From positions 10,985-47,529 of the forward strand of contig JBBFKW010000020.1 of assembly GCA_037481835.1 (NCBI GenBank): DNA of 36,545 bases, given 5' to 3'. Under the pieces are notes generated by a model, which was not told the origin of the DNA, did no database searches, and was given only the letters and a program-made list of their open reading frames with translations. This stretch comes from Desulfosoma sp. (lineage in GTDB: Bacteria > Desulfobacterota > Syntrophobacteria > Syntrophobacterales > DSM-9756). The first letter of the stretch is position 1, and every line of letters begins with the position of its first letter. Below are positions 341 to 26,850 of this stretch, piece after piece. The position numbers and the translations under genes were made by a program.

Positions 341-625
341 CTAAAGCGCCCCGTAACTCTCCCGCTTGGGGGCTTCCCCCAATCCGATGTGCTCAAACGA
401 TCCCAAACACACTTCGCACTGGCGGTAAAACCGTACCGTGTCCGTCGTATGATCGATCAAACGGTCCAGCCGATCCATGAGCGTCAAGAGCTTCTTTTCA
501 GTCAGTCTCGGGCACTCGAACACGGATTTTTGCACCCGGTACCCGTAGCCCTTGAGCACTTTGACCACTCGGTACCGCGTCCTGTCATCGCTCACATCAA
601 AACAGACCACATAAAACATGGACAT
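341..625 (-). CDS. cas2: CRISPR-associated endonuclease Cas2
   Basis: 94 aa, YVVCFDVSDD...GYRVQKSVFEC signature; adjacent to cas1. Confidence 0.97.
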   Translation of the reverse strand: MSMFYVVCFDVSDDRTRYRVVKVLKGYGYRVQKSVFECPRLTEKKLLTLMDRLDRLIDHTTDTVRFYRQCEVCLGSFEHIGLGEAPKRESYGAL

Positions 626-658
626 GCCCCCCCAGCTCCAAACGAAGCAGCCTCTCCT

Positions 659-1705: not shown

Positions 1706-1748
1706 GGGCCCCTCGCTCTGTTCTCTCCGCCCCCTCAGCCTGACCTCG

Positions 1749-2040
1749 CCCCCTCACCCTACCCTCTCCCCCTAAAGGGGGAGAGGGGAAAGGCATGGGC
1801 CTTGTGTCATCCTGCCCTTGCCCCCTCAGCCTGCCCTCTCCCCCTAAAGGGGGAGAGGGGAAATGCTTGGGCCCTGTGTCTGAAGGGGCAACTCTTAGGC
1901 TGCCCTCTCCTGAGGGGACAACCTTTCAACTGACCCTGCCCCTCTCCCCCTAAAGGGGGAGAGGGGAAATGCTTGGGCCTTGTGTCTGAAGGGGCAACTC
2001 TTATACTGACCTTCTCCCTTGAACGGGGGAGAGGGGGACC
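1749..2040. repeat. Cluster of four BoxC/REP-like palindromes
   Basis: CCCTCTCCCCCTAAAGGGGGAGAGGGG at about 1762-1788, 1834-1860 and 1940-1966, and a degenerate copy at about 2010-2037. Copies 2 and 3 share a further ~35 bp downstream (AAATGCTTGGGCC...GGGGCAACTCTTA). Confidence 0.85.
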
Positions 2041-2169
2041 TGGCTTCTTTTCCCAGCCGTGCGGCTTTCCAATGGGCAAAAGCCGAACAGTCCTGGAGTC
2101 GGCCTCTCGGTTCCTGGTGAACTATCCAGCTATAGATTCAGGAATGGCGAGGGCCGAAGAGGCCGGGAG

Positions 2170-3828: not shown

Positions 3829-3898
3829 GGCCTTTCTCCTGAGGCTCATCGACGGTCGCAAAGGCCGGCACGCCCGCCAGGTCCAGGCCCCGCCGCCG

Positions 3899-5287
3899 TC
3901 ATTTCTTTGCGCTCAGAGCCTGGGCGATCTTCTTTTTCAGTTCCGCCAAATGGGGATAGCGAGGGCGCAAGGCGTTCAGGTCTGAGGCCGCTTTCCAGGC
4001 CTCCTTGTGCCGCCCCAGCCGATAGTTGGCCGCCGCTTCCCAAAAGAGGGCCTCGTCATGGGGGTTTTGATACGTCTGGCGGCAAAAATCGTTGGCTTCC
4101 CGGGCCCACTGGAGGCATTTTTCCAGGGCGTTTTCCCGAAAGGCGATCTTGGCCAGGCGCACCAGGGCCTTGTGACGCCCGCGGCGATCCTTTTCGGCGG
4201 CCTTTTTCAGCACTGCCTTGGCCTGCTCCAGGCGGCCCCGGGCCGCCAACACATCGGCTTCCGTCCACAGGACATAGGGACGGCGCCGGTGGGCCGGTAT
4301 GCGCGCCAAGGCTTTTTCCGCATCGTCAAACCGGCGCTGGGCCAAGGCCACCCGGGCGCGCAGTTCGAAGACGTAATCGTGGTCGGCGGGATCGGCCTGG
4401 ATCGCCGCAAAGTCCAAAGCCTTTTCGGCATCCTGCAGATTCCCCAAGGCGTAGTGGACCTTGCCCAAGGCGAAATACTTGTGCACCACCGAAAGATATT
4501 GGGAGGTGTCATCCTCGTGCAGGCACCGGGTGAGCACGGCCAGGGCGTCCTTGGCCCCGCCCAGGGCGAGGAGGCACGAAGCCCACTGATAAAGTGCCTT
4601 GACCACGTTCTTGCGTTCTTGGTGTCGCGCCTTTTTCTCCTCTTCATCCAAGGCGTCCCAGTTTTTGACCGCCGTCCGGAAAAGGGGCAGCGCCCGGTCG
4701 GGCTTGCCCTGGATGGCTTTGTAGAGCATGCCCTGCCGGTAGAACTGGGTGACGTTGTCCGGCTTCAAGGCCTGGGCCTTGGCAAAGTGCTTGTGCGCCA
4801 GTTCCATGCGGGCTTTTCGCTCTTCCGGGTGCAGGAGCACTTCCCGGTTTTTCGCCGCATAGAGGCTGTCGTAGGCCGTGTAGGCGAGCCGCCCGTGGGC
4901 GTGATAGTCCTCGGGGTTTTCCTGAACGCAGCGACGCGCCAGATCCAGGGCCGTGTCATGCCTTTTGAGATGACACAGGGCAAAGGCGATTTCCCCCCAA
5001 AGAGCCGGGCCGAAGCCCGCCTCCACGAGTTCGGGGAACCGCTCTTCCGCCGGGTGGAGCATATCCACCAGTTCCTGCCAGCGCGCTTCACCTCGCAGGA
5101 TCTCGATTTCGCTCCAGAGGCGACCGAAAGCCTTTTGCAGGTCCTTCGAACTCACCTCTTGGGCCGCCAGCTGGTCCAGAAAGGCGCTGTCCTGGTGCGC
5201 CGCCTCCGTGTCCGGCTCCTGCCCGTCCCCGGCAAAATCCTCCGGATCAAGTCCTTTCGGGTGTGCGGGTTTTTCCACCATGATCAT
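3899..5287 (-). CDS. Tetratricopeptide-repeat protein heading the adaptation operon
   Basis: 462 aa with repeated TPR-like helical units (e.g. YFALGKVHYALGNLQDAEKALDFA); GGAGG RBS; co-oriented with CAPP-cas1-cas2. Confidence 0.85.
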   Translation of the reverse strand: MIMVEKPAHPKGLDPEDFAGDGQEPDTEAAHQDSAFLDQLAAQEVSSKDLQKAFGRLWSEIEILRGEARWQELVDMLHPAEERFPELVEAGFGPALWGEIAFALCHLKRHDTALDLARRCVQENPEDYHAHGRLAYTAYDSLYAAKNREVLLHPEERKARMELAHKHFAKAQALKPDNVTQFYRQGMLYKAIQGKPDRALPLFRTAVKNWDALDEEEKKARHQERKNVVKALYQWASCLLALGGAKDALAVLTRCLHEDDTSQYLSVVHKYFALGKVHYALGNLQDAEKALDFAAIQADPADHDYVFELRARVALAQRRFDDAEKALARIPAHRRRPYVLWTEADVLAARGRLEQAKAVLKKAAEKDRRGRHKALVRLAKIAFRENALEKCLQWAREANDFCRQTYQNPHDEALFWEAAANYRLGRHKEAWKAASDLNALRPRYPHLAELKKKIAQALSAKK

Positions 5288-5344: not shown

Positions 5345-5373
5345 TCTACGGCGCGGAAGCCGAAATTTACAAA
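5345..5373 (-). promoter_or_regulatory. Putative alternative-sigma promoter, copy 1 (TPR-CAPP-cas1-cas2 operon)
   Basis: Minus strand TTTGTAAA-tttcggcttccgc-GCCGTAGA, ending about 58 bp before the TPR start. Confidence 0.7.
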
Positions 5374-5453
5374 AGGGGCTCGGCCGGGTCCGAGCGCCGG
5401 GGAAGGGGTTGACAAGAGGCCCCCGTTCATACGAAAAGTTTCACAATCCATGC

Positions 5454-5482
5454 TTTGAAAAACCCGGTATCGATGCCGTTAT
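5454..5482 (+). promoter_or_regulatory. Putative alternative-sigma promoter, copy 2 (cas6-csm operon)
   Basis: TTTGAAAA-acccggtatcgat-GCCGTTAT, same 13-nt spacer, about 95 bp before cas6. Confidence 0.55.
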
Positions 5483-5577
5483 GAACAGGCGAGGCCGTGG
5501 AAACCGAACCGGCAATGTCGGGACGCTTTCGGCGGGACCGGCCGTTTTTCCACACCCCAGGGTATTGAGAGGCAACC

Positions 5578-6555
5578 ATGACGACCGCACACCATGCTTT
5601 GCGCTGTGTCCGGGTGCGCTGGTGGATCCGGGCGCGAAAGACCATTGAACTTCCGAGCTACAAGGGAAGCACGCTCCGGGGCGCTCTGGGCATGGCGCTC
5701 AAGCACAGCTGCTGCGCCGCGCGCCAGCGGCCGTGCGAGGCCTGTCTCCTGCGCTTTTCCTGTTTGTACGTCTACCTTTTTGAAACGCCTCTTTTGGGCG
5801 AATCCCCGAATGATCTACGGTATCGCAACGCCCCCCACCCCTTCGTGCTCCAGATCGGCATGGACGGGCCGCTGCGCCTGGAACCCGGGGCGTCTTGGTC
5901 CTTCGACATGACGCTCATCGGGCGTGCCATCCAGTGGACGCCGTACCTCGTCATGGCCGCCCACCGCATGGGCGAGATGGGTATCGGCAAGGGGCGGGGC
6001 ACCTTCGACCTGGAACGGGTCGTTTCCTTGGACGCCCAGGGGAACCCCTGGGAAGACGTCTATGCCGACGGCATCCTGCGCCTGCCGGAAAGGAGCCTCC
6101 CCTTGACCGACGGCATGGACCGGGAAGAGCCGGCGCGGGGCGAAGCTTTCACTCTTCGGTTCCTGACCCCCGTACGGCTCATGGCCCAAGGGGAACCCGT
6201 GCGGGTTCCGGAGTTTTCCGTTCTTTTGGCCACACTCCTGCGACGTTTGGAAAACCTGCAGCGCTTCCACGGGGAAGACCACGGCGCCTTCTCTGTGCCT
6301 TTCATGGAACTCATGGAAAAGGCGCGCTCGGTTCCCATCGTGGAAAACCGCACCCGGTGGTTCGACTGGGAACGGTATTCCCACCGGCAGGGCCGAAAGA
6401 TGCGCTTGGGAGGCCTTGTGGGGGAAGCGGTTTACGGCGGGGACGCCCGGTATTTCGAACCGTATCTCAGCGCCGGCCGCTGGATCAACGTGGGCAAAGG
6501 CACCAGTTTCGGTCTCGGCCGATACGAGGTGCGTCACGACACGGAGGGGGAATGA
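5578..6555 (+). CDS. cas6: CRISPR pre-crRNA endoribonuclease Cas6
   Basis: GSTLRGALG, PHPFVL, FLTP and C-terminal VGKGTSFGLG glycine loop; Cys cluster near the N-terminus. Confidence 0.95.
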   Translation: MTTAHHALRCVRVRWWIRARKTIELPSYKGSTLRGALGMALKHSCCAARQRPCEACLLRFSCLYVYLFETPLLGESPNDLRYRNAPHPFVLQIGMDGPLRLEPGASWSFDMTLIGRAIQWTPYLVMAAHRMGEMGIGKGRGTFDLERVVSLDAQGNPWEDVYADGILRLPERSLPLTDGMDREEPARGEAFTLRFLTPVRLMAQGEPVRVPEFSVLLATLLRRLENLQRFHGEDHGAFSVPFMELMEKARSVPIVENRTRWFDWERYSHRQGRKMRLGGLVGEAVYGGDARYFEPYLSAGRWINVGKGTSFGLGRYEVRHDTEGE

Positions 6556-6558
6556 TCC

Positions 6559-9084
6559 ATGTTTTCCCGTGAACGGCGACATTCTTTGTGTTTGGCGGGG
6601 CTTCTTCACGACGTGGGGAAGTTCAAACAGCGGGCTGGCTCTTCCGAAGACCGGGGGCTGACCCACGGGGAAATCGGCTACCGGTGGCTGCGGGACCGCT
6701 ACGGCGAAAGCCTCATCGCTCTGGGAGCCAAGAACCACCACGCCTGCGACGAGGATGTGTGGTCCGACAACAAGTTGCTTGTTCTTTACGAGGCCGACAA
6801 CTGCTCCGCCTCCGAGCGGCGTTCCGTCTACGACAAGGCCCGGGATGTTTCCGCATCCTGGCACAAGGACGTGCCCCTGGCGTGTGTGTTTTCCCGGGTG
6901 CGGAACCCCCACGAGGACATCCCCACATCGGAGCCTCCCAAGGCCTACTGGGAACTTCCGTCCGAAGGCGACGCCGTTTCGGGATGGCATCCGCCGAAAA
7001 CAGAGGAAGGGAAAAATCCTCCGAAGGCTTACCAGGCCTTGTGGCAGGCCTTCCATCGGGAATTCGACGCTTTAAAAAGCCTGAATAATCACGAGAACGT
7101 CGACGCCGTGATGCATCTTCTGGAAAAATACACCGGATCCGTCCCGGCCATGACGCTGCGGGTCACAGGCGTCAACGACAGGCAAACCTACCGCAAACAC
7201 CCGGACGTTTCCCTCTTCGACCACTTGAAAACCACGGCGGCCTTCGCCCTGTGCCTGGCGGATTTTTACTGGGAGAAATACGGCGAGGAGTGGAACCGCC
7301 GCCCGCTCAAAGAAGAAATCACCGGGGCCGACACCTGGGCCGAAAATGCCCAATGCCCTTTTTTGCTGGTGGGCGGGGATCTTTCCGGCGTGCAGCGGTT
7401 TCTCTACACCATCTCGTCCAAAGGAGCGTTGAAGTCCCTCAAGGGCCGGTCGTTTTTCCTGGAACTCTTCTTGGAACACGCCGTGGACGCCGTCCTGGAC
7501 GCCCTGGGGCTCTTCCGCTGCAACGTGATCTTTACGGGCGGCGGCCATTTTTACCTGGTGGCGGCAAACACCCCAAAAACCGAAGCCGCCCTGCGGGAGG
7601 TCGGGGGCCGCCTGAACCGGTATCTCCTCCATGATTTCAACGGAGCCCTGGAATTGTTCCTTCGGTGGGTCCCTTTGCGAAAGGCGGACCTCAAGGACGT
7701 GACGGGACCCTGGCAGCGATTGTCCGGGGCTCTCGAGGACGCCAAGAAGAGAAAGGGAGAGGATTTTCTTCAAGAACTTCTCGCCGAACCCCGAGATCCG
7801 CACCCCGATTGCTACACCGACAAGTGCCAAGTGTGCGGCCGAGAAGACCGCCCCTTGGAGGTTTTGACCATCAAGGAAACGGCCATCCCGGTTTGTGAAC
7901 CGTGCCGTGACCAATACTTCTTGGGGGATCTGCTCCAACAGGCGGCTCGAAAAGGGCAGGCGCCGGTCATTTACCGATGGAACCGGGAACCGGAGGGAAT
8001 TTCCCGGGACCGCTACGTCCGCATCGAAAACCGCTTCTACCAGCCGGCGACGGGCCTCTTCGGGCGAAAGCACGAGGCATTGAACCGGGATGCCGACGCC
8101 GTTTTCCACCTGAACGATTGGGATTTGTCCCACTTTCAACATCCCGGAAGCCGCCCTCTTTTTGCGGGCATCTACCTTCCCCCCGAAGACGCGCCGCGGG
8201 ATCTGGAAACCATGGCCGAAAAGGGATTCGGCATGGGCCGTGTCGGGGTGGTGCGCATGGACGTGGATCGGCTTGGAAGGATTTTTTCCATGGCCCTTCC
8301 CGAAGGCGAGAGGACCTTTTCCCTGACGGCCTCCCTGTCCCGGCAGTTGAGCCTCTTTTTCAAGTACCACATCAACGGCGTTTTGGAAGGAGAGGACGGG
8401 TACCCGAAAAAAACGCGCCTGGCCGATCGCCCCGACGGGCCGAGGCTGGCCACCGTGGTGTATTCGGGCGGGGACGACCTTTTTCTCATCGGCCATTGGC
8501 TCGATGTCCTCGAGGCGGCGCTGGACATCCAAGGGGCTTTTGCAACCTTCACGGCCAATCCCCACATCACCGTTTCCGCGGGCATGGCCCTGGGAGGCCC
8601 CCACGAGCCGGTTTACCGCTTGGCGGACGAGGCGGGAAAAGCGGAAGACATGGCCAAGGCCCCGCGGCGGGACGGCATGAAAACCGTTCCAGGGCGCAAG
8701 GCCTTGACCCTCTTTGGGCGCCACGTCTTTCCCTGGAAGGAGCCCCGGAGGCCCGATGTGACCAAGGTCTTGGAGGCCCTGGGGCATTTGCAGCCTTTCT
8801 TGCAGGTCGACGGCGGGAGCCTGAAGACCCGGCCCAACGGCCTTTCCAAAGGCTTCTATTACAGGCTGCTGCAGCTCGTACGGCGCCAGCGCCGAGACGG
8901 CGTCTGGGTATTGCCCAAGCTGGCTTACCTGTTCGGCAGAACCCGGGTGGACGGCGCCTTGGAAAAGGATTGGATCGCCCTGAAGCACTACATCTTTTCC
9001 AGCAAGGCCGATGGGTGGCGCCACGTGGAAGCGGCGCTCCTCATCCTATTGATGATGATGCGCGAAGGAGGGTCGAAAACATGA
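6559..9084 (+). CDS. cas10: Type III-A Cas10/Csm1 with HD nuclease and cyclase motifs intact
   Basis: LLHDVGK (HD), PDVSLFDH, GGDLSGVQRF (Palm1), CQVC...CEPC Zn finger, RMDVDRLG and YSGGDD (Palm2). Confidence 0.97.
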   Translation: MFSRERRHSLCLAGLLHDVGKFKQRAGSSEDRGLTHGEIGYRWLRDRYGESLIALGAKNHHACDEDVWSDNKLLVLYEADNCSASERRSVYDKARDVSASWHKDVPLACVFSRVRNPHEDIPTSEPPKAYWELPSEGDAVSGWHPPKTEEGKNPPKAYQALWQAFHREFDALKSLNNHENVDAVMHLLEKYTGSVPAMTLRVTGVNDRQTYRKHPDVSLFDHLKTTAAFALCLADFYWEKYGEEWNRRPLKEEITGADTWAENAQCPFLLVGGDLSGVQRFLYTISSKGALKSLKGRSFFLELFLEHAVDAVLDALGLFRCNVIFTGGGHFYLVAANTPKTEAALREVGGRLNRYLLHDFNGALELFLRWVPLRKADLKDVTGPWQRLSGALEDAKKRKGEDFLQELLAEPRDPHPDCYTDKCQVCGREDRPLEVLTIKETAIPVCEPCRDQYFLGDLLQQAARKGQAPVIYRWNREPEGISRDRYVRIENRFYQPATGLFGRKHEALNRDADAVFHLNDWDLSHFQHPGSRPLFAGIYLPPEDAPRDLETMAEKGFGMGRVGVVRMDVDRLGRIFSMALPEGERTFSLTASLSRQLSLFFKYHINGVLEGEDGYPKKTRLADRPDGPRLATVVYSGGDDLFLIGHWLDVLEAALDIQGAFATFTANPHITVSAGMALGGPHEPVYRLADEAGKAEDMAKAPRRDGMKTVPGRKALTLFGRHVFPWKEPRRPDVTKVLEALGHLQPFLQVDGGSLKTRPNGLSKGFYYRLLQLVRRQRRDGVWVLPKLAYLFGRTRVDGALEKDWIALKHYIFSSKADGWRHVEAALLILLMMMREGGSKT

Positions 9085-9485
9085 ACGGAGGAAGGGAACA
9101 CGCCAACATTGGTCAGTTCAGGGGAGAACTGAGCGATCTCAAAAAGCTCAGCATGGAACGACTGGTAGAAATCGCCGATGCCGTCGGCGCCGCCATCGCC
9201 CGACGGGTGAAAATGAATCAGATTCGCCGGTTTCTCGACGGCACCCGCAAGGTGGAAGCGGAGCTGAAAGGCCAGAGAAAGTTTGAAGAAATCAAGGACC
9301 AGATCATTCTCCTTCGGCCCAAACTGGCCTACGCCGCCGGGAGGCATCAGGATGTAAAGGATCTGGCGGAAATTTTGGATGCCGCCGTGAAATCGGCGGC
9401 TCAGACCCAAGACAACTTCATGAAGTTTTTGCGGTTCATGGAAAGCATCATCGCCTACCACCGCTTCCACGGCGGAAGAGATTAG
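9081..9485 (+). CDS. csm2: Csm2 small subunit
   Basis: ATG 9081 overlaps the cas10 stop (ATGA); 134 aa with NQIRRF, LRPKLAYAAGR and FMESIIAYHRF. Confidence 0.95.
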   Translation: MNGGREHANIGQFRGELSDLKKLSMERLVEIADAVGAAIARRVKMNQIRRFLDGTRKVEAELKGQRKFEEIKDQIILLRPKLAYAAGRHQDVKDLAEILDAAVKSAAQTQDNFMKFLRFMESIIAYHRFHGGRD

Positions 9486-9500
9486 AAGGAGGAGACGACC

Positions 9501-10334
9501 ATGGCACCGAAGACCTATCGCAAGATTCTCGGGAAAATCGCCTTGGAAGGGGTCATGGAATGCCTGAGCGGGCTGCACATCGGGGCCTCCAAGGAAAACC
9601 TGGAGATCGGGTCCCTGGACAGTCCCGTAGTGCGGGATCCCATCACGTCCGAACCCTACGTGCCGGGCAGCTCACTGAAAGGGAAACTCCGAGCCCTCTT
9701 GGAAAAGGCCCATCCCGAACTCCTCCCCAACCGGGACGGCGGCAGCGGCATCAGCCGCCATGAATGCAACGACTGGGAGCCCGGGAAAGGCCGCAACAAG
9801 AACTACAATGCGGATTTGCCCTACCCCGGGGCGCTGTACTGCCCCGTCTGCCGTTTGTTCGGCTCCACGGGACCGGGGGAAGGCCAAAATTTCCCGGCCC
9901 GACTGAAGGTGCGTGACATGCGCCTTACGGCCGAAAGCTTGGAAGAACTCAAAAAGATCGACACGGGACTTCTCTATACCGAATGGAAGTTTGAAAACGG
10001 CATCGACCGGATCACATCGGCGGCCAACCCGAGGAACCTGGAACGGGTGCCTCGCGGCACCAAGTTCGATTTCTCCCTGGTCTACGATGTGGAGGACTTG
10101 GAGACCCTGAGCGAAGACCTTCGCAACCTGCAGCTCGCCCTGGCCTTGCTCCAGGACGATGCCCTGGGGGGCCACGGATCGCGCGGATACGGCCATGTGC
10201 GCTTTGAGTTCACCAAGATCGAAGCCCGCAAGGTCGATTACTACCGAGGTGAACCCGGTCAGTCCACCGCCGTTCCCGGCCTGGAGAAGTTGGCCGAGCT
10301 GGCTGGGTTCTTCAACGGCCGAGGGGGCGCTTAA
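9501..10334 (+). CDS. csm3: Csm3 (Cas7-group RNase)
   Basis: GLHIG...IGSLDSPVVRDP (catalytic Asp present), PYVPGSSLKGK, ENGIDR, LGGHGSRGYG. Confidence 0.97.
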   Translation: MAPKTYRKILGKIALEGVMECLSGLHIGASKENLEIGSLDSPVVRDPITSEPYVPGSSLKGKLRALLEKAHPELLPNRDGGSGISRHECNDWEPGKGRNKNYNADLPYPGALYCPVCRLFGSTGPGEGQNFPARLKVRDMRLTAESLEELKKIDTGLLYTEWKFENGIDRITSAANPRNLERVPRGTKFDFSLVYDVEDLETLSEDLRNLQLALALLQDDALGGHGSRGYGHVRFEFTKIEARKVDYYRGEPGQSTAVPGLEKLAELAGFFNGRGGA

Positions 10335-10349
10335 CACGGAGAAGGGTCA

Positions 10350-11372
10350 ATGAAAACCTATCTCTATCATTTGGAATTTCCGGCCGGAGCCCACTTCGGG
10401 CGGCAGGGCATCGGGCTGGAAGAAACCGGGGAAACCGTTCCGTCGGATTCCCTCGTGTCGGGGATCGTCAATGCCTTCGCCCTCATGGGGGAGGCGGAGG
10501 AAGTCCTCCAGGCCTTGGCGTCACCCACCCCGCCCTTCGTGCTGAGTTCTCTCTTTCCCTTCGGCCCTGAAGGCGGCAAAGGCGGGCGCCGACTCTACGC
10601 CCTGCCCCGCCCTTTGACCTCGCCCCCCGTAAAGGACCCGGCCATCCTTCAGAGCGCCGGAAAGGACTTGAAAAAGATCCCATACCTCCAGCCTGGAGAC
10701 GCACTCCGCTGGCTCGACGGCACCCCTTTCAGCGCCGAGGCTCTGGAAGCGGTCCAAGAGCGGGCCCGCCGGCTCGCCCGCCCGTGGGACCCCGAATCGG
10801 AAGAAGGGTGGATGAGCTCCTCGCTTCGGCCGCGGGTGGCCTTGGATCGTAGCGCTCAAAACAGTGTCATCTGGTGGTGCGGCGAGGTCCACTTCAGTCC
10901 CGGAGCCGGCCTTTATGGTCTTGTGCGCTTTCGGGACGCTGCTTGGAAGAAGCGGGTCGAGGCGGCCTTCCGGCTCTTGGGGGATATGGGCCTTGGCGGG
11001 GAGAGAACCTACGGCCTGGGCACCTTCCGTTTCGGCGGCTTCGCGCCTGTGGAAGAAGCCTGGTCGGATGTGAAACGACCGGCAAAAGCCGCTCGGTATG
11101 TTCTCCTGTCGCGATACGCGCCCGCGCCTGAGGAGTTGGATCGGCTCCGGGACGTGCTCACCGCCTGGAATATGGAAGAGAGCCGAGGGTTTGTCGTCTC
11201 CGGCCGGCACGCCACAACGCTCAAGAGAAAGCGGGTGCGATTTCTCACGGAAGGCTCAGTGGCGACGACGCCCCTGGCGGGCCGCTTGGTGGATGTCACC
11301 CCGGAACACGGCCCCGCCTTGGGGCTTGCCCACCGCGTCTATCGCAGCGGCATGGGCTTTTGGTTTCCTTAA
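10350..11372 (+). CDS. csm4: Csm4 (Cas5-group)
   Basis: HFG, PSDSL, SSLFPF, RPRVALDR and GLGGERTYGLG motifs; operon position. Confidence 0.93.
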   Translation: MKTYLYHLEFPAGAHFGRQGIGLEETGETVPSDSLVSGIVNAFALMGEAEEVLQALASPTPPFVLSSLFPFGPEGGKGGRRLYALPRPLTSPPVKDPAILQSAGKDLKKIPYLQPGDALRWLDGTPFSAEALEAVQERARRLARPWDPESEEGWMSSSLRPRVALDRSAQNSVIWWCGEVHFSPGAGLYGLVRFRDAAWKKRVEAAFRLLGDMGLGGERTYGLGTFRFGGFAPVEEAWSDVKRPAKAARYVLLSRYAPAPEELDRLRDVLTAWNMEESRGFVVSGRHATTLKRKRVRFLTEGSVATTPLAGRLVDVTPEHGPALGLAHRVYRSGMGFWFP

Positions 11373-11393
11373 AGGGTTGTTTGGAGGCGTCTT

Positions 11394-13085
11394 ATGGTCA
11401 TCCAGGCGGTGCCATCCCATGGGGCGGAAAGACCATTGGAAAAAATGATCATCAATTTGACCGTCCTTTCTCCCATCCACATCGGGACGCGGGACGGCGC
11501 CCTGCTCCCCATGGAATTCCTCTTCGACGGGGAACAGGTCCACGTGGTGGACGAGGCCAAACTGGGCCGCTTCCTCATGCAAAGGAACCTCTTGGACGCC
11601 TTCGTCCAGCAGGCCTTCTCCGGGAACCTTCGCAGGCAAGGCCTGGGCGGTTTCCTCAAAGAAAGAGCTCGGGACACGGACTTCAAAAAGATCGGCCCGG
11701 CCGTGGCGGCCTATTCCGTCCCGGGAGGGGGTCCAGACATGTCGGATTTCCGGCCGCTTGTGCGAGACGGCTTCGGGAAGGTGTACCTTCCCGGCACCTC
11801 CATCAAGGGGGTTTTACGCACGGCTTTCCTCTACGCTGTTTTGAAGAATGAACCGGCCGGCTCGGGGCACGCACCGAAACCTTCTCGCCAGGCCCAGGTG
11901 AAGAGCTTGATCCAAAAACTCCGCGGTGAACCCAACAAGGAACGCGCTAAGAAATTCCTGTCGGCGCAGCTCCAAAAGGAGATCCTGCAAGAATGGAAAA
12001 TTCAAGGAGGCGGCCACGATCAGAACCGGGACATCCTTCGCTGCCTCAAGGTGCGGGACGCCTACCCCCTGAACGGCAAGGTCCAGACCCGGGTCATTCC
12101 CATCCGGTTTCTTTCCAAAAGGGCCGACGGGAGCCATTACTGGAGTCAAAGGCCCAGAGGTGGGGGAGACTTGGTCGTTTGGGTGGAGGCGGTGGTGAGC
12201 GGCACCTTTCAGACGGAAATCCTGTGGGATCACGACCTTTGGGAAAAGTTTTCAAAAGAAAACCCCGGGAAAAGGATTCCGGCGGCTTCCGCCAAAGGTG
12301 TTCTTCTTCTCGCCGATCGGATGAACCGGGACCTTTCGGCCCACGAAAAAGCCTTTTTCACCGAGAAAGGCATCCCTCAAGGCGGCCAGCTCAAAAGCTG
12401 GTACGATGCGCTGGGGTCATCCATTTTCCGCATCGGGTTCGGCTCGGGAATGCTTTCCACGACGGTGAACCTGCTCTGGAGCGAATCGCTGCGCCAGGAG
12501 ATCCGAAACATTTGCGGTCTGGACAGAGGAACGGACCCGGCGCCCAAGTCCCGAAGGGTCTGGGCGAGGAACGACCGGGAGTGCCTTCCCATGGGCTGGG
12601 CCCGCATCACAATCGCCGACGGTGCCGGAACGATGGAAGCGCCAACGAGGTCGGCTCCCTCCGGCGAGAGGCCCGCAAAGCCGGGGGACAGGGAAAAGCC
12701 TTCAGAAGCGTCCCAGGCCGGTCCAGGGCCGGCCCCGAGAAAGGAAGAGAGCCCGAGGGCTCCGTCGGCTCATACCGGCGCTCCGGTCAAAACGCCTTCC
12801 CCACCCCAAAAAATATCGATGCCGACGTCCGAGAAGCCGATGTCCGCGCCTTCCGGCCCCGCTGCGCCGGGCACACCCCCGTCCGGTTCCCTCGGCCTGG
12901 TCGATAAAGCCAAGGCCGTTCCCCTGACGGACAAGATCGCCATGGAGCGATTGTTCAAGGACATGGAGCGGGCCGAAGAAGAGCTGGCTCGAAAGGCGGC
13001 GGAAGTGTTGAAGGAACGCATGGAGCGGCAAAATCTCTGGAAGAAAACGCCGTATCGGGTCACCATTGAAGAGTTTCTCTGGTGA
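11394..13085 (+). CDS. csm5: Csm5 with long C-terminal extension (alternative start 11445)
   Basis: LSPIHIG, YLPGTSIKGVLRTA, RIGFGSG, PKSR and PMGW motifs, then a ~100-aa Pro/Ser/Ala-rich linker and a ~65-aa helical tail. Confidence 0.92.
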   Translation: MVIQAVPSHGAERPLEKMIINLTVLSPIHIGTRDGALLPMEFLFDGEQVHVVDEAKLGRFLMQRNLLDAFVQQAFSGNLRRQGLGGFLKERARDTDFKKIGPAVAAYSVPGGGPDMSDFRPLVRDGFGKVYLPGTSIKGVLRTAFLYAVLKNEPAGSGHAPKPSRQAQVKSLIQKLRGEPNKERAKKFLSAQLQKEILQEWKIQGGGHDQNRDILRCLKVRDAYPLNGKVQTRVIPIRFLSKRADGSHYWSQRPRGGGDLVVWVEAVVSGTFQTEILWDHDLWEKFSKENPGKRIPAASAKGVLLLADRMNRDLSAHEKAFFTEKGIPQGGQLKSWYDALGSSIFRIGFGSGMLSTTVNLLWSESLRQEIRNICGLDRGTDPAPKSRRVWARNDRECLPMGWARITIADGAGTMEAPTRSAPSGERPAKPGDREKPSEASQAGPGPAPRKEESPRAPSAHTGAPVKTPSPPQKISMPTSEKPMSAPSGPAAPGTPPSGSLGLVDKAKAVPLTDKIAMERLFKDMERAEEELARKAAEVLKERMERQNLWKKTPYRVTIEEFLW

Positions 13086-13222
13086 GTCCGCGCATGCGGC
13101 GGGGTCGTCCCCACGACCCCGCCCGCACGGGAAGGCCTCGATCCACCGTGAAGGCGGGCTTTACGCGGCCCGGCCGAGATAGACGAGCGGACTGTGCACG
13201 GGAGCGGGCTCACCTGCAATGG

Positions 13223-13849
13223 TCAAACAAGGAGAGAAAGGGCCAGGCGGGACCAGAGCTCCAAGGGGCGGGCCAAAACCTCATCCAAAGGTCGCCAGCA
13301 AAATCCCCCCAGTTCCTTTCCGGGGACCATGCCCTCCGGGGCGAGCACGTGGAGCCGGAAAACCAAACCCAGATGCACCTCGCCGACGGGGCTCCTCTCT
13401 TCGTTGATCACGCCGCAAAAAACGGGGCCGGCAAAGCCGGCCAGCCGTTCAAATTCCTCTGAAATTTCACGCATCATCCCGTGACGGACGGCGGCGTAGG
13501 GATTCCCGGAAAAGCCCCGGGCATCGCCTTCGGTCACGTGCCCGCCGATGCCCACGGATTCCAAACCGTGGAGCCTCGTCTCGCTTCCCTTGCGGCGATA
13601 ACACCCCACCGTGTTGTCCTTCGGGACCCAGGCCAACACATAAGGGATGATCTGTTTCCACTGCGGGTCCCGCTCCACCCGGGACCGGTCCAGGAAGGCA
13701 CACCCAGCCGCCTCCAGAACGGCGAAACACACTTTTTCGGGCATGCGCAAAGCCGCTTCCTCAGCACGCCATGGCTCGGGCAGGGCCGCCCGCGGCACAC
13801 ACAGCACCTTTTCCTCTTTCGTGTCGAACCGTTCTTTACAAGGATTCAT
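13223..13849 (-). CDS. NUDIX-superfamily phosphoesterase (YmaB/COG4112-like)
   Basis: E-x-DP-x-x-KQIIPYV, SVGIGGH, GMMREISEE (Nudix box) and GVINEE...VGEVHLGLV; start ATG 13849 overlaps the end of csx20. Confidence 0.8.
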   Translation of the reverse strand: MNPCKERFDTKEEKVLCVPRAALPEPWRAEEAALRMPEKVCFAVLEAAGCAFLDRSRVERDPQWKQIIPYVLAWVPKDNTVGCYRRKGSETRLHGLESVGIGGHVTEGDARGFSGNPYAAVRHGMMREISEEFERLAGFAGPVFCGVINEERSPVGEVHLGLVFRLHVLAPEGMVPGKELGGFCWRPLDEVLARPLELWSRLALSLLV

Positions 13850-14255
13850 GGGGCTCCTTCCTCGGGGTTTCGTAACGGCGAAAGCGCACGTGGCGGAACA
13901 CGCGCTTTTGGAGCACACTGCCGTCCGGCTGCACCGTTTCTTCGAGGAGGCGCTCCGTTGTGGCGTAGACAGGCACGAGCCCTTTGGAAAGAGCCCATGA
14001 GACGGTTAAAAAGGTGGCCCCGTAGTCTCCCTGCACAAGGATCACATCCCCCGGGGCCGCTTGACCCTCAACCCATTCCAGAACCGGTTGAACCCACTCG
14101 CCAATGGATGGGGTATCGGGCGGGACGTTCCCCCAGAGTTTTTTCAAAGCCTCCGGCATGGGCCGCATCAGGGGGGCGCGCCAGTCCTGGGCCAACTCCT
14201 TCTCCTGAGCCGGGCTCAAAGCATGGGAAAGAAGAAGAAAGGCGCGGTGCATCAT
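13836..14255 (-). CDS. csx20: CRISPR-associated protein Csx20 (ring-nuclease family)
   Basis: 139 aa; SH-x-L...Q, WGNVPP, GDVILVQGDYGAT, VYATTER and FRHVRFRRY; ATGA overlap with the csx1 stop. Confidence 0.85.
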   Translation of the reverse strand: MMHRAFLLLSHALSPAQEKELAQDWRAPLMRPMPEALKKLWGNVPPDTPSIGEWVQPVLEWVEGQAAPGDVILVQGDYGATFLTVSWALSKGLVPVYATTERLLEETVQPDGSVLQKRVFRHVRFRRYETPRKEPHESL

Positions 14256-15616
14256 CGGTCCCCTTCCCCGCCGTGGCGATGCCCATGAGCCCAGGGCGCA
14301 CATCCTTCGGCCCTGTAGGCCTCCCACGCCGTCCGAAGCGACGTCAGCCCTCCTTTCCGGAGGAAATCCACCAGGCTTTCCGCGGACGCCGTGTCTTTCT
14401 TCCAGCCGCCGTGGAGGAGGTCGTTTCGTCTGTCTCGAATCTTTTCAAATTCTTGAGCGAGCTTCTTGATGGACTCGCCCCCTTGGCTGATCACGCGCTG
14501 GGCTTCTTCCCGCCTTTCCCGCACAAGGCCCTCCCATTGGTCCATAGATTTTTTCGTCGCCACAACATGAAGAAGGCCGCTCCAAAACCCTTCCCGTGTC
14601 GCTTCATCCAAGGGATCGTGCCCCCAGCATCGACACAAGCCGCTCAAAACCGTCTCCCGGGCAATGGCGTACGCCTGGAAGATGAGTTCATGTTCCAGAC
14701 ACCACGCCGCCGCTTCAAACCCCTTGGCTTCCGGATCGGGTGTTTCGAACCGTTGGAGTTTGTCCCTGAGGAGTTCAAAAAGGGGAGTCAGAGGGGCGAT
14801 GAGATCCTGATCCTCCACCTCGGTGATTTCCTCACCAAGGCCTTTGGCCTTGGCGAGTTTCGGCCCTCGGACTGCAGCCAGATCCTGGCACAGTGTCTCC
14901 AGGGCCTTCGCGAAACGGGACAGCCGCTCGGCCACGGGATTGGCGCTTCGACTCTCTTTGTGTGCGAGAATGGGCCCCACATTCCTGGAAACGAGCCTTT
15001 TGATTTCCTGCGGCCGGCCCGCTTTCCGAAAAATATCGACGGCTCTGGCCCAATCGAGAAGGGCGTCGTAGGGGGTGAGGTCGAAGACCGGGGCGAGCCG
15101 TTCTTCCAGCGGCATGTGCTGGACCTCTGCGGCCGTTCCCAGGGTTTCGAAAGCGCCGTAAACGATGCGCTCGACCTGTATGTTTTTGAGCACCTTGGCA
15201 TAATTGACGATGACGGTCTGGAGAAGGGGAAGGGACCGAAAGGAATGGGTGATATCTAGAAAGACCTGGTCGCCGGGGCGAAGTTGTTCGATGAGGATCA
15301 TGAAGATGTCCATCATCTCTCTTTCGTTGCGCCCGTCGGGGATGGGCACCATGGTGCACGGCGCCCGAAGGCCCAGGGCATCGATCCGCGAGCACAAACC
15401 CCGCTCGAAGTTTCCGCCGTCAAGCCAGTTTTTTTCCTTCGCCTTCTCGGTGCAGAAGATGAGAACGCGGTCTTCCTCGCCCCACTCCTTGCAAAAGTGC
15501 GCCAAGAGCGCTTCCTGCACGAAGGGGACGGCCTCTTCCGATTTTGTGCCCTCAATGACGTAATGCGATGGATGATATTTGTTCGTGCCCAGGGGACTCA
15601 TGAAAACCCTGCCCAT
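14252..15616 (-). CDS. csx1: Csx1-family CARF-HEPN cOA-activated RNase (TM1812/TIGR02221-like)
   Basis: N-terminal S-x-LG...Y, DITHSFRSLP (DxTHG-type CARF motif), YGAFE and C-terminal RNDLLH (HEPN RxxxxH); GGAGG RBS. Confidence 0.92.
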   Translation of the reverse strand: MGRVFMSPLGTNKYHPSHYVIEGTKSEEAVPFVQEALLAHFCKEWGEEDRVLIFCTEKAKEKNWLDGGNFERGLCSRIDALGLRAPCTMVPIPDGRNEREMMDIFMILIEQLRPGDQVFLDITHSFRSLPLLQTVIVNYAKVLKNIQVERIVYGAFETLGTAAEVQHMPLEERLAPVFDLTPYDALLDWARAVDIFRKAGRPQEIKRLVSRNVGPILAHKESRSANPVAERLSRFAKALETLCQDLAAVRGPKLAKAKGLGEEITEVEDQDLIAPLTPLFELLRDKLQRFETPDPEAKGFEAAAWCLEHELIFQAYAIARETVLSGLCRCWGHDPLDEATREGFWSGLLHVVATKKSMDQWEGLVRERREEAQRVISQGGESIKKLAQEFEKIRDRRNDLLHGGWKKDTASAESLVDFLRKGGLTSLRTAWEAYRAEGCAPWAHGHRHGGEGDR

Positions 15617-15724
15617 GGAAACCTCCTTCCGCCGTGTGCCGCAGCTCGCCCATGCGGCACACCTTATACCGGGAAGACCATGACACCGTCAAAACCCAAC
15701 CCACCCCACCCGTTCTGATGGGCT

Positions 15725-15753
15725 TCTACGGCACTGAAGAGCGGTTTTGCAAA
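15725..15753 (-). promoter_or_regulatory. Putative alternative-sigma promoter, copy 3 (csx1-csx20-NUDIX operon)
   Basis: Minus strand TTTGCAAA-accgctcttcagt-GCCGTAGA, about 109 bp before csx1. Confidence 0.7.
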
Positions 15754-15888
15754 AAAGCCTTCTTCGACCTTCAGCCAAAGGCCGGCCAAACCTCATGGTT
15801 TGTATTGTCAATCTTTGCAAATTTTGCTTCTATGCCGAGGTATTCCTTGGGCTTCGGTGCGCGGCGCTCCACACACGGCGGCGGATCC

Positions 15889-16959
15889 ATGACGTGGGAC
15901 CAATGGCTCCATTCGGAATCCTGCAACCAGGTTTTGCTTCGCTCAGCGGCTAAGGTGGTGGATAAGGCTCGGGGATACGGGCTGCCATGCCGCATCCTTT
16001 TCCCTTCGGCCCCCGAAGCTTCCGCGGGGTCCGGCGTATCCGCCGGGTGCTTTGAGGACTTGGCCCATGACTTATGGCTTTTCGTGAATGATCATGCCGT
16101 GAACTGGGAAAAGTCCCGTCCCTTTGACATCCTGCTGGCTCAGGGAACGGATCGTATCGCTGAGCACATCGCCTCCTCCTACACGCGCACCCTCCTGGAT
16201 CGGGTGAGAACTCAAGAAGTCGATCCCCAAAAGGCCTTTTACCGGCGGCTTCGTCAGGTGATCGCCAAAGACCCCCGGTTTCTGTACCGTGCGCAAAAAA
16301 GAGCGACTTTTTACGCCTGCGCCGAGGGAGCACAGCCTGATCCTTCGGCTCCAATGAACGCACCTCCTGCAGACTATGCCCAATGGCCCGATCCCCCGTC
16401 CATCCCCCGTAAGTCGGCCCCTCCCGATGCCCGAACGCTTGGAGACATGGCGCTTTTTTTCTGCCGTGAATATCAAAAACGCATGGGAGGCCCCGTCTGG
16501 GTGCCCGTCCGAGAACTCACTCGATATCTCGCACCGCTGTTAAAGATCCCGAGAGCCGTGCGGCTTGAACCGCTCGAGAGGCCTTCGTCCGAGCACGATG
16601 ACGAACTGGGCAAAGACCCAACGCAGGTGGCTCCGACGCAGGAAACGGCGCTGACACGGATACGGTTGTTCGAGCTGGCTCGGAGCGCCACGGCCTCGTG
16701 GAGCCCCCGGGAGAAGAAGGCCTTTGCCCTCCGCTGGGGCGATGAAGAAAACCTGGAACGGATCGCCCAGGCCCTGGGATACGGCGGGCCCTCAGGCGCC
16801 CGATATTTGCTGGAAGGGCTTCGGCAGCGCCTGCTGGATTTTTGTCTGCTCTGGCCGGGCCTATCCCCGCCCGACCTGGACGAGACCCTTTTTAAGGAGT
16901 TGTTTGAGGCTTTGGTGAGCGTTTGTAAAGAAGAGGGCGAAGGCCGTAGAGAAGGGTGA
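15889..16959 (+). CDS. Atypical ECF/sigma-70-like factor (start uncertain, 15889 preferred)
   Basis: Region-2-like EDLAHDLWLF...TRTLLDRVR and region-4-like WSPREKKAFALRWGDEENLERIAQALG HTH, separated by a long insertion; precedes an anti-sigma-like gene. Confidence 0.7.
   Translation: MTWDQWLHSESCNQVLLRSAAKVVDKARGYGLPCRILFPSAPEASAGSGVSAGCFEDLAHDLWLFVNDHAVNWEKSRPFDILLAQGTDRIAEHIASSYTRTLLDRVRTQEVDPQKAFYRRLRQVIAKDPRFLYRAQKRATFYACAEGAQPDPSAPMNAPPADYAQWPDPPSIPRKSAPPDARTLGDMALFFCREYQKRMGGPVWVPVRELTRYLAPLLKIPRAVRLEPLERPSSEHDDELGKDPTQVAPTQETALTRIRLFELARSATASWSPREKKAFALRWGDEENLERIAQALGYGGPSGARYLLEGLRQRLLDFCLLWPGLSPPDLDETLFKELFEALVSVCKEEGEGRREG
16922..16950 (+). promoter_or_regulatory. Putative alternative-sigma promoter, copy 4 (anti-sigma + protease)
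   Basis: TTTGTAAA-gaagagggcgaag-GCCGTAGA inside the last codons of the sigma gene, about 155 bp before GTG 17106. Confidence 0.7.
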
Positions 16960-17105: not shown

Positions 17106-18311
17106 GTGACAGCGAAGCCGGCACACAAAGGGTCAAGCCATCCAAAGAAAAAACTGGAACAACGCTTAGCCCTGCAAGAAGCGCATCGGGTGCGAGGCTG
17201 CCCACCGCATGATATGCTCTTGCAGGATCCCCCGGACGACGCCCTTTGTCGGCATTTGGACTCGTGCCTCTTTTGCCGGGAGGACCGTGCCGCCCTGGCC
17301 GTTCACACCGGGGATGGGCCTTCTCGTGCGGCGATGGCTCGGAAACCGGACCCGCCGGAAGCCGATGAGGCAGCTTCAGTGGGAGACCTGCGTCGAATAA
17401 GGGAAGACTTTGGAGGGTGGGGACCCCGGGGGCGATACTTCAACCCGCCGTTGGTCTTTCTCGTGGAGGAGGTCAAGGGGCGAAAGGACGTGTTTCGAGC
17501 GGCCCAAGTCCATGACTTTCCGGCTTTGAAAGGCCCTGGAGACACGCCCCTCTTTGCGGAGGTTTTCGCCGAATCATGGAACGTATACCCGGTGGCCCGG
17601 TGGCGCCTGGGGCCGCTGGTGCGCCGCATGGATCAGGCGGTGACGGCCCGGGTTCTCAAAAACGCCCGCCGCCGACCCCACGAAAACAAACAGGCCACAT
17701 GGGCGAAAGGCGTTGAAAGGGATCTTCGCTCCCCCGCCTATTCCGAGACGTCCTTTCTTGAAGCCTTCCGGCGCTTGGAAAAAGAAACGGCCGCCTTTTT
17801 CACATCCTTGGCCCTTTCGGATCTTTCGGAAACCTTCGCCACAAGCCGCCTTCGGCGCGCCTTGATGGAGAAATTCACCGATTTCGGCGCTTTGGAAGAC
17901 GCCTTCGGCTCCGCCGTCATCCTTGAAGACGATCCCTACGAAGACCCCCTCCTGCGCCTCGTGCTTTCATCCTGGATGCCGCCCTCTCTGCCCATGGCCG
18001 CCGCAGGGCCTGCCCAAGGATTTTTTGTCAAAAAAATCCGATGGGCTCCTTCTCCTGCTTTGGAACCCGTGTGGGCGGAACTGAGAGCCTTTGAAGAAAC
18101 CGAAGACGGATTTCTCGTGGCCGGAAAAATTCATGAGCGTGTTTGCGAGGAGGCGGAAATTCACGCGGTGTGGCGCATTCCCGCCGGCCGGGCCCTGGCG
18201 CGGGAGGCCGTCATCGATCCCAACACGGGCTATTTCAGGCTCCTTTTCCCCGAAGTGACAAAGAAAACCGCCATCTTGGCATTCCTGGAAGTGCTCATCG
18301 GCCGTCCATGA
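17106..18311 (+). CDS. Putative anti-sigma factor: ZAS-type Zn finger, MazF/PemK-like barrel, beta-rich C-terminal domain
   Basis: C32...H50-x3-C54-x2-C57; central GDLRRI...PPLVFLV...AAQV...GPGD...AESWNVYPV pattern resembles a MazF-like fold (by eye); lies between the sigma and protease genes. Confidence 0.6.
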   Translation: MTAKPAHKGSSHPKKKLEQRLALQEAHRVRGCPPHDMLLQDPPDDALCRHLDSCLFCREDRAALAVHTGDGPSRAAMARKPDPPEADEAASVGDLRRIREDFGGWGPRGRYFNPPLVFLVEEVKGRKDVFRAAQVHDFPALKGPGDTPLFAEVFAESWNVYPVARWRLGPLVRRMDQAVTARVLKNARRRPHENKQATWAKGVERDLRSPAYSETSFLEAFRRLEKETAAFFTSLALSDLSETFATSRLRRALMEKFTDFGALEDAFGSAVILEDDPYEDPLLRLVLSSWMPPSLPMAAAGPAQGFFVKKIRWAPSPALEPVWAELRAFEETEDGFLVAGKIHERVCEEAEIHAVWRIPAGRALAREAVIDPNTGYFRLLFPEVTKKTAILAFLEVLIGRP

Positions 18312-21405: not shown

Positions 21406-21412
21406 GGGGCCC

Positions 21413-23791: not shown

Positions 23792-23865
23792 GGCCTTACA
23801 AGGCGGGCCGCTCGGCGGCCTACGGCGCAACATTTACACAAACTGTCTTGGTGGAGGTGGCTGTC

Positions 23866-25017: not shown

Positions 25018-25122
25018 AGGGGAAAAAGCCGAGGCGGGAAAGGCCAAGCGTCCGGCGGCGGAACCGAAGCCGCCCCGGACGCCGGGCCCCGCCCGCACCG
25101 AAAGCACAGGGAGGACCAAGGG

Positions 25123-26832: not shown

Positions 26833-26850
26833 GGCCGAAGGGGAAAATGC

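Follow-up and report, generated by a model that had tools for sequence, protein, structure and literature searches.

A shared bipartite promoter-like motif points to a sigma-like regulon at a type III-A CRISPR locus of Desulfosoma

The control of type III CRISPR loci by dedicated sigma factors has been known from single model cases, such as DdvS in Myxococcus and CASP-sigma in type III-E systems. In Myxococcus xanthus, DdvS, a sigma factor of the extracytoplasmic function (ECF) type, serves four promoters distributed across the type III-B CRISPR4-cas locus, which share the pattern GTAA-n16-CGT. According to the available part of that report, they were validated by reporters, by 5′-RACE (rapid amplification of cDNA ends) and by chromatin immunoprecipitation with quantitative PCR, with one of them directly before the cas/cmr cluster, and bipartite AA...CGT promoters are generic for ECF sigmas (PMC6061681). 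In the type III-E case, the available text describes a CASP-sigma released by proteolysis of its inhibitor, for which induced spacer acquisition was proposed, and three matches to a motif within that locus, one ahead of cas1 and two ahead of uncharacterised genes, which were validated by reporters in E. coli (Strecker et al. 2022, PMC10028731). A further type III-associated set, CalpL-CalpT-CalpS, comprises a SAVED-Lon protease, an anti-sigma and an ECF-like sigma, and in the mechanism proposed for it cleavage of the inhibitor by the protease sets the sigma free, CalpS then transcribing 'specific genes' that the accessible portion of the source leaves unnamed (10.1101/2024.05.08.593097). Sigma-driven type III loci are already known from these systems, and the locus described here, a type III-A CRISPR locus of Desulfosoma sp., is a variant of them. 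It lies in a stretch of 36,545 nt (the window), part of a genome of 3,629,418 bp labelled G000, and carries four copies of a bipartite motif, numbered 1 to 4 along the window, together with a three-gene module encoding a 356-residue sigma-like protein, a 401-residue protein with a zinc anti-sigma (ZAS) type motif and a 713-residue Lon-type protease. The closest experimental precedent is DdvS (PMC6061681), which was absent from an earlier, sequence-only reading of the same DNA.

The likeness to DdvS/DdvA consists of a sigma gene, here a sigma-like one, beside a type III locus and of several promoters across it, which here are candidate sites; compared with the pattern GTAA-n16-CGT, copies 1 and 4 match exactly, whereas copy 2 reads GAAA and copy 3 GCAA. 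In the same source, DdvS is an ECF sigma whose anti-sigma, DdvA, is bound to the membrane, and it depends on CarD-CarG (PMC6061681). By description, the present sigma-like protein differs in carrying an insert and no detectable region 2, and its partner in having no strongly hydrophobic segment, unlike a membrane-bound anti-sigma; the third gene encodes an ATPase-less Lon protease, the system is a III-A with CAPP-cas1-cas2, and the sigma gene has no motif upstream. With CASP-sigma, the locus shares a CRISPR-associated sigma, here a sigma-like factor, with motif matches in the locus, one of them before cas1 or, here, the operon that contains it. That system uses Cas7-11, the inhibitor Csx30 and a TPR-CHAT protease, Csx29, directly activated by RNA (PMC10028731), whereas here we find Cas10 with Csm2-5, a TPR protein matching only TPR families and no CHAT, and a protease of Lon type. 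The Calp likeness is the three-gene Lon-type protease/anti-sigma/sigma-like module beside type III genes and the release mechanism proposed for it; on the other hand, no SAVED or CARF domain was recognised by sequence in the 713-residue protease, the sigma-like and ZAS-motif proteins are much larger, and a concrete candidate regulon is mapped. A literature search turned up no paper on this sigma-like family or motif, which is not proof of absence.

The reading favoured here, to which a probability of about two in three is given, is that the four sites are promoters read directly by the 356-residue protein, encoded at 15889-16959, acting as a sigma. The -35-like block would be TTTGNAAA (core TGNAA) and the -10-like block GCCGTA (core CGT), in the geometry GTAA-n16-CGT. 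At rest, the sigma-like protein would probably be held by the neighbouring ZAS-motif protein; once the type III CRISPR system raises an alarm, this inhibitor would be cut by the Lon-type protease without ATPase that is encoded next to it, and the freed factor would direct RNA polymerase to five targets. These would be the adaptation genes TPR-CAPP-cas1-cas2, perhaps together with the array behind them, the interference genes cas6-cas10-csm2-5, the effectors of the ancillary operon (csx1-csx20-TM1382-like), the inhibitor and protease of the factor itself, transcribed from a promoter lying within its last codons and thereby providing feedback, and another type III locus at a distant place in the genome. 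It is very likely that the cis-elements are real, functional-looking and belong to the module. We infer, moreover, that recognition would be direct, by a true sigma, and that this sigma would be sequestered; the triggering signal and the proteolytic cleavage are suggested by analogy with the described systems.

The motif, TTTGNAAA-N13-GCCGT, was read directly at four positions of the window, each copy facing the next gene (gaps to start codons are counted from the 29-mer). Copy 1 (5373-5345, minus strand; TTTGTAAA-N13-GCCGTAGA) stands 57 nt from the ATG of the TPR gene at 5287, ahead of TPR-CAPP-cas1-cas2, and copy 2 (5454-5482, plus strand; TTTGAAAA-N13-GCCGTTAT) stands 95 nt from the ATG of cas6 at 5578, ahead of cas6-cas10-csm2-5. 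Copy 3 (15753-15725, minus strand; TTTGCAAA-N13-GCCGTAGA) precedes the csx1 ATG at 15616 by 108 nt and with it csx1-csx20 and a TM1382-like open reading frame (ORF), while copy 4 (16922-16950, plus strand; TTTGTAAA-N13-GCCGTAGA) precedes the GTG of the ZAS-motif gene at 17106 by 155 nt. The latter copy falls within the last 13 codons of the sigma-like gene, where TGT-AAA encodes Cys346-Lys347. Copies 1 and 4 match 16/16 specified positions and copy 3 matches 15/16. Against the four matches in the window, 100 dinucleotide shuffles gave a mean of 0.02 and none reached four, and a window scan allowing one mismatch returned no additional match. In the whole genome, both strands included, there are 8 strict matches, of which 4 lie in this 11.6-kb stretch, with a genome-wide expectation of ~2.6 computed from 921 TTTGNAAA and 20,844 GCCGT sites.

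A matrix independent of the window was built from 13 sites found at the 3′ ends of sigma-like genes in other genomes; one near-duplicate, two loci with spacing 14 and two more in which the site is degenerate or missing were left out. All 13 sites used for training have AA and CGT without exception, and the consensus is TTTGNAAA-N13-GCCGTA. Among ~7.26 million scored positions of the genome, copy 4 at the sigma 3′ end ranked 1 (score 25.7), copy 3 before csx1 ranked 3 (23.7) and copy 1 before the TPR gene ranked 4 (21.9). Rank 2 (23.9) was a site in a CRISPR spacer (G000:C12:27929), rank 5 (21.1) a site on a different contig (G000:C14:11647, minus strand), 224 nt ahead of the longest-ORF start of a second cas6-cas10 operon, and rank 7 (18.2) a site in the same second type III locus, after a CARF gene (G000:C14:13805, plus strand). 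Copy 2 before cas6 came at rank 20, with a score of 15.2. Every hit of this genome scoring at least 20 is CRISPR-linked, and four first-order Markov genomes produced 0, 1, 1 and 1 hits at this threshold and 0 at 22 or above, versus 5 and 3 in the real genome. Copy 2 is weak, and the case for it lies in its position and in the conservation of the site among orthologues. A loose pattern, YYTGNAAR-N13-GCCGTA, occurs ~1-6 times per genome, like its reversed control, and does not separate genomes by presence of the module; it is only position and the full matrix, not loose pattern counts, that discriminate genomes with the module from those without it.

The second type III locus, at G000:C14:5000-20000 (L039, L numbers denoting fetched locus stretches), contains cas6, cas10, csm3-like and csm5-like genes and the two motif sites, as well as a divergent gene without an assigned family and a CARF-DUF2103/RelE-type gene; for the gene after the site at C14:13805 no family match was found. 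The rank 2 hit (C12:27929-27957; L040:7929-7963), TTTGGAAA-N13-GCCGTAAG, lies wholly within the final spacer of a CRISPR array whose 37-nt repeat is a different one. The motif-bearing spacer adjoins the degenerate terminal repeat, and neither this genome nor the fetched loci yielded a protospacer for it. High scores inside long ORFs far from CRISPR genes (G000:C4:235601, L079, L080 and L081) were treated as chance. In two other genomes, hits of ~20-21 (L072:5477 and L076:1792, both on the minus strand) fall within a Card1-like CARF-nuclease gene, in coding sequence that is orthologous between the two, with a Cas10-like gene just downstream; they may mark a promoter inside the gene, or be a coincidence that conservation of the protein has preserved.

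The relatives used for comparison were the 61 genomes of the same order, this genome counted, which belong to 21 genera. Homologues of the 356-residue protein occur in 21/61 genomes and in 11/21 genera, and all 18 fetched ortholog stretches keep the order sigma-like, ZAS-motif, Lon-like to the extent that their contigs cover it; the protease is matched over its full length in 15 of them and over a part in 1, and in 2 the contig end truncates the match. The genes csx1, csx20 and/or csm were found in 11 of these 18 stretches, and more type III genes lie near in other stretches. Records titled Desulfosoma, Desulfacinum and Syntrophobacteraceae hold 13 such loci, including one titled as the cultured strain Desulfacinum infernum DSM 9756, in which the locus (L146) has both the sigma-3′ site and a divergent site. 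Sites before TPR/CAPP, cas6, csx1/csx20 and Cmr1-like genes were not used in training, and in other genera such untrained sites score 19-27.5 before TPR or CAPP, cas6, csx1/csx20 and a Cmr1-like gene. Upstream of TPR (or CAPP), on the same strand, 11 of the 14 TPR-carrying genomes score 13.5-27.5 within ~90-260 nt. Upstream of cas6, scores of 19.2-21.1 were obtained in several genera; among the 29 loci scanned (second pieces of split matches, and one copy of this genome without a returned locus, having been dropped), 14/18 loci of module-carrying genomes reach at least 14.6, while the genomes without the module give 0/11 and a maximum of 9.7. For csx1 the scores are 23.7-26.7 at 135-150 nt in 4/4 genomes of the genus, with a maximum of 9.0 in 4 loci without the module, and for csx20 (or a small gene ahead of it) ~22 in four further genomes; a Cmr1-like gene of one relative has an upstream score of 20.2. 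The divergent TPR/cas6 site pair is reproduced in five other genomes. The TPR protein itself is found in 14/61 genomes, all of them module-carrying, and may have its function in the switch, for instance in sensing, or in adaptation.

The site at the end of the sigma-like gene gives a detailed view of what is conserved. The sequence TG(T/C)AA(A/G)-N13-(G/A)CCGT, or the same with a spacing one base longer, is present there in 17/19 loci, and in 18 protein sequences Cys346 is invariant and Lys347 occurs in at least 90%. The second block stays 13-14 nt downstream whatever its coding: the stop codon falls between the blocks in 8 loci, overlaps the second block in one and lies beyond it in most others, with tails of variable sequence and length. 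The constraint acts on DNA and not on protein, because the GCCGTA block is kept whether coding or not while the stop moves, and this DNA constraint may itself explain the invariant Cys-Lys. Upstream of the sigma-like gene itself, no motif was found in any of 18 orthologues. A weak near-copy at 15814..15841 (plus strand; TTTGCAAA-N12-GCCGAGGT), 47 nt before the sigma ATG and scoring 12.6 at spacing 12, is probably not functional; none of the 18 orthologues has a counterpart. With no site upstream of the sigma gene, feedback in the circuit would bear on inhibitor and protease and not on the factor itself. One sub-lineage has a degenerate or lost sigma-3′ site (L033, L034, L150, L152, L154 and L155); in genomes of this sub-lineage (G024 and G040) the TPR and cas6 upstream sites persist, and the feedback arm seems dispensable.

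The sigma-like protein belongs to a family of 388 clusters at 50% identity with expectation values (E) of 0.001 or lower, 306 of them at 1e-10 or lower, most members being 330-380 residues long. The 356-residue ORF alone gives a weak Sigma70_r4 match. When 121 members were combined into a profile, it matched region 4 of several sigmas, among them FliA (E 1.7e-8), an ECF sigma (E 3.9e-5) and SigF, and Pfam assigns Sigma70_r4 to 44 and Sigma70_r4_2 to 31 of the same 121. In the AlphaFold model of the full protein (predicted local distance difference test, pLDDT, 78.5), residues 246-328 superimpose on ECF sigma4 domains (3hug_A, Z 8.1, root-mean-square deviation (rmsd) 4.7, 80 aligned residues; 6dv9_F, Z 8.0, rmsd 3.6, 75 aligned), and nearly all top structural rows for this part are sigma factors. 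Sigma region 4 is present. A Foldseek search with the full model gave no match at E 0.001 or lower, most of its weak rows being sigma chains. Modelled alone, the N-domain reached a pLDDT of 89.7, and of the 33 best structural rows for it, 10 are alignments of residues 1-111 to sigma2 domains (CnrH, AlgU, SigH, SigR, SigL, SigE and SigC), the best being CnrH (4cxf_A, Z 5.2, rmsd 3.5, 80 aligned), followed by AlgU (Z 4.5), SigH (4.0) and SigR (4.0). Between the two domains there is an insert of ~110-140 residues, with a helix, a beta hairpin, a long loop and two helices, for which no match was found.

The two partner proteins complete the proposed switch. In the 401-residue protein C32, H50 and C54 are invariant and C57 occurs in at least 90% of sequences, in a C...H-x3-C-x2-C arrangement that we take to be the ZAS signature. 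Pfam anti-sigma families (e.g. zf-HC2) were matched by 0/17 members at E up to 5. Its best 19-residue hydropathy window is 1.26, leaving no strongly hydrophobic segment, and no membrane-protein family was matched except for DUF2270 below threshold. When the sigma-like protein and residues 1-100 of its ZAS-motif neighbour were predicted as a complex, the score was 0.00, which speaks neither for nor against binding. Altogether, a role of the 401-residue protein as anti-sigma is plausible, to judge from its residues. For the 713-residue protein, a profile of the Lon domain matches solved domains at E 1e-11 (1xhk) and CalpL at E 0.013 (7qda), its neighbours in the Atlas comprise only Lon_C, and Ser189 and Lys231 are invariant in 15 sequences, giving the Lon Ser-Lys core. 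No ATPase, CARF or SAVED match was obtained in Pfam, PADLOC, NCBIfam and PDB-sequence searches, the C-terminal ~430 residues having been searched by sequence alone. The protease has in addition one strongly hydrophobic 19-residue window at residues ~53-71 (Kyte-Doolittle 2.06), which could be a membrane anchor or a buried helix.

Several observations weigh against the direct reading of the sites by a sigma of this kind. Sigma70_r2 is matched by 0/121 family members, so that region 2 is undetectable by sequence; hhalign comparisons with the two canonical sigmas of the genome found nothing (probability 0.1); and the sigma2-like scores, with Z not above 5.2, are within noise for helical bundles. 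Moreover, with 356 residues the protein has roughly double the length of an ECF sigma and contains the unmatched insert, a different build from the compact two-domain architecture of ~170-220 residues. As to the sites, each of the Markov genomes had 19-25 hits scoring at least 14, which puts the score of copy 2 within chance range, and sites are missing in relatives: the TPR site in 3/14 genomes, the cas6 site in 4/18 loci of module-carrying genomes, and the sigma-3′ site in 2/19 loci and in 4/13 named records. The genomes are kin, so the counts with and without the module are not independent, and the cas6 genes of module-less genomes are more distant homologues (at most 43% identity), so that lineage and module are confounded. 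Finally, with no sensor domain recognised in the protease, a link to cyclic-oligoadenylate signalling can be suggested by analogy only.

The main rival, which we regard as unlikely, builds on the protein. It keeps the same sites and the same regulon and takes the 356-residue protein for a non-sigma transcription factor, a sigma4-type helix-turn-helix joined to a second domain, which would activate or repress promoters of another holoenzyme. That only region 4 is significant, with the Sigma70_r2 count and the fold scores just given, and that size and insert are atypical fit such a factor; a scan for sigma-70-type promoters in both divergent intergenic regions found 0 sites, which favours neither reading. 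A sigma is favoured by the motif itself, which is asymmetric, always points toward the downstream gene and has its blocks in the validated ECF promoter geometry GTAA-n16-CGT, not in that of a dyad or direct-repeat operator. Sigma2 domains are also the best-represented structural neighbours of the N-domain, and a ZAS-motif protein next to a Lon protease fits a sigma/anti-sigma switch.

If the sites are promoters, they might instead belong to another, canonical ECF-type sigma, with the module of the locus only modulating them or being one of their targets. We consider this improbable. The genome has two small canonical sigma genes (G000:C9 and G000:C5), whose products could in principle read an AA...CGT promoter, a type generic for ECF sigmas (PMC6061681). 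Against them stand the site that the sigma-like gene carries inside its own 3′ end in 17/19 loci, the finding of the cas6 and csx1 motifs only in module-carrying genomes, and the CRISPR linkage of all hits scoring at least 20 in this genome, whereas a general stress sigma should have other targets. The sequence-only reading had proposed as its alternative an operator for another regulator, such as the WYL protein of the window. WYL regulators are often linked with defence loci, and a WYL-WCX helix-turn-helix protein is indeed encoded at 34818-36206, but its gene is 18 kb away, beyond transport and histidine-utilisation genes, and homologues (E 1e-20 or lower) occur in 7/61 genomes and in only 3 of the 21 module-carrying ones, this genome included. 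They were not found in G001, G002, G003, G005, G006, G008 and G058, all of which have strong sites. The WYL protein was rejected as regulator of the motif on this distribution, and a chance or compositional pattern is excluded by the shuffles, the matrix ranking and the Markov genomes, so that an unrelated operator or a chance pattern would be a far-fetched explanation of the sites.

What had been proposed from the sequence alone is supported, with some corrections. Direct reading of the letters bore out the four copies at 5373-5345, 5454-5482, 15753-15725 and 16922-16950, each with a 13-nt spacer and each toward its downstream operon, although copies 1, 3 and 4 are strong and copy 2 is weak (15.2, rank 20). 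An oriented, bipartite ECF-type promoter-like set, apparently tied to the sigma gene of the locus, is supported by rarity, matrix, conservation and co-occurrence, and the expectation that a genome scan with a position weight matrix would give few hits, enriched at defence genes, agrees with copies 4, 3 and 1 at ranks 1, 3 and 4 and with all hits of at least 20 being CRISPR-linked. The regulon, described as one of the locus, includes its four operons but is not confined to them, reaching the second type III locus on another contig. The inhibitor was named as a target of its own sigma, which the site within the 3′ end of the sigma gene, before the anti-sigma-like and protease genes, upholds, the sigma gene itself having the motif upstream in 0/18 orthologues. 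For the locus-encoded protein as a sigma, region 4 is shown and region 2 is not.

A wider proposal, which is tentative and in our judgement has somewhat less than an even chance of being right, is that of a genome-wide 'type III alarm' programme run by an undescribed family of ~350-residue sigma-like proteins with an unusual N-domain, together with a Lon protease lacking SAVED/CARF, a ZAS-type inhibitor and targets in trans. In such a programme, infection would trigger the protease to destroy the inhibitor, and the freed factor would raise all at once spacer acquisition (TPR-CAPP-Cas1-Cas2 and perhaps the array), the type III interference complexes of the whole cell, those encoded in trans as well, and the CARF effectors, while inhibitor and protease would be raised from a promoter whose -35 element is formed by the invariant Cys-Lys codons at the C-terminus of the factor. 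If true, type III immunity would boost its own expression and spacer uptake upon alarm, and a sizeable uncharacterised sigma-like family would be added to the catalogue. In any case, comparative genomics alone yields a concrete candidate regulon for a Calp-like but distinct sigma/inhibitor/Lon module, predicted to extend over adaptation and interference, the ancillary effectors, a feedback arm and, in trans, a second locus. Reporters and mutants can be designed directly from so sharp a motif, and the cultured Desulfacinum infernum DSM 9756, which carries the module, makes start-site mapping and induction feasible.

The genes of the locus are arranged as follows. The adaptation operon (341..5287, minus strand) consists of TPR (3899-5287), the CAPP primase-polymerase (2170-3861), cas1 (659-1705) and cas2 (341-625); the TPR protein matches the PADLOC 'TPR' profile at E 1e-169 and CAPP an NCBIfam equivalog at E 3e-167. 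The interference operon (5578..13085, plus strand) comprises cas6, cas10, csm2, csm3, csm4 and csm5, and in Cas10 both the HD (residues 17-18) and the GGDD (residue 637) are present, which by sequence makes the locus a multi-subunit type III-A Csm system with Cas10 and Csm2-5. The ancillary operon (13223..15616, minus strand) holds csx1 (CARF-HEPN, 14252-15616), csx20 (13836-14327) and the TM1382-like ORF (13223-13918). The module follows on the plus strand, with the sigma-like gene (356 residues, 15889..16959; sigma2-like helical N-domain 1-111, insert of ~110-140 residues, region 4 at ~246-328), the anti-sigma-like gene (401 residues, 17106..18311; N-terminal C-x17-H-x3-C-x2-C of ZAS type and a conserved C-terminal domain of ~300 residues without a family match) and the gene of the ATPase-less Lon-family protease (713 residues, 18308..20449; Lon proteolytic domain at ~148-277, ~430 C-terminal residues without a family match). 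The labels TPR, CAPP, cas1, cas2, cas6, csm2-5, csx1 and csx20, as originally assigned, agree with the family matches. The 231-residue ORF called NUDIX gave no Pfam, NCBIfam or PADLOC match, but it does match TM1382 (3e57, E 5e-15) and carries REISEE. The 'anti-sigma/protease' label is plausible on the ZAS-type residues and the Lon Ser-Lys core, although the Pfam anti-sigma families do not recognise the former protein.

Directly outside the window, upstream of position 1 and behind cas2, lies a large CRISPR array on the minus strand (G000:C20:414-10596; L041), with many 36-nt repeats at a period of ~72 and a masked N stretch within. The leader between cas2 and this array, of ~330 nt, has a TTGACA ~30 nt ahead of the first repeat; the motif was found neither in this leader nor beside the C12 arrays at the low thresholds applied, and the array could be served by read-through from the putative promoter of copy 1. 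Between cas1 and CAPP, at 1735-1880 of the window, a 72-nt unit occurs in two tandem copies with 89% matches. The HTH-WYL-WCX regulator at 34818-36206, encoded on the plus strand and unlinked to the motif, has a partial second copy at C32 of the genome. On the 3′ side of the CRISPR module, positions 20542-29015 of the window hold genes of ABC transporters for branched-chain amino acids and a set for histidine utilisation (urocanase, formiminotransferase and an imidazolonepropionase-like amidohydrolase), an ordinary metabolism that marks the edge of the locus.

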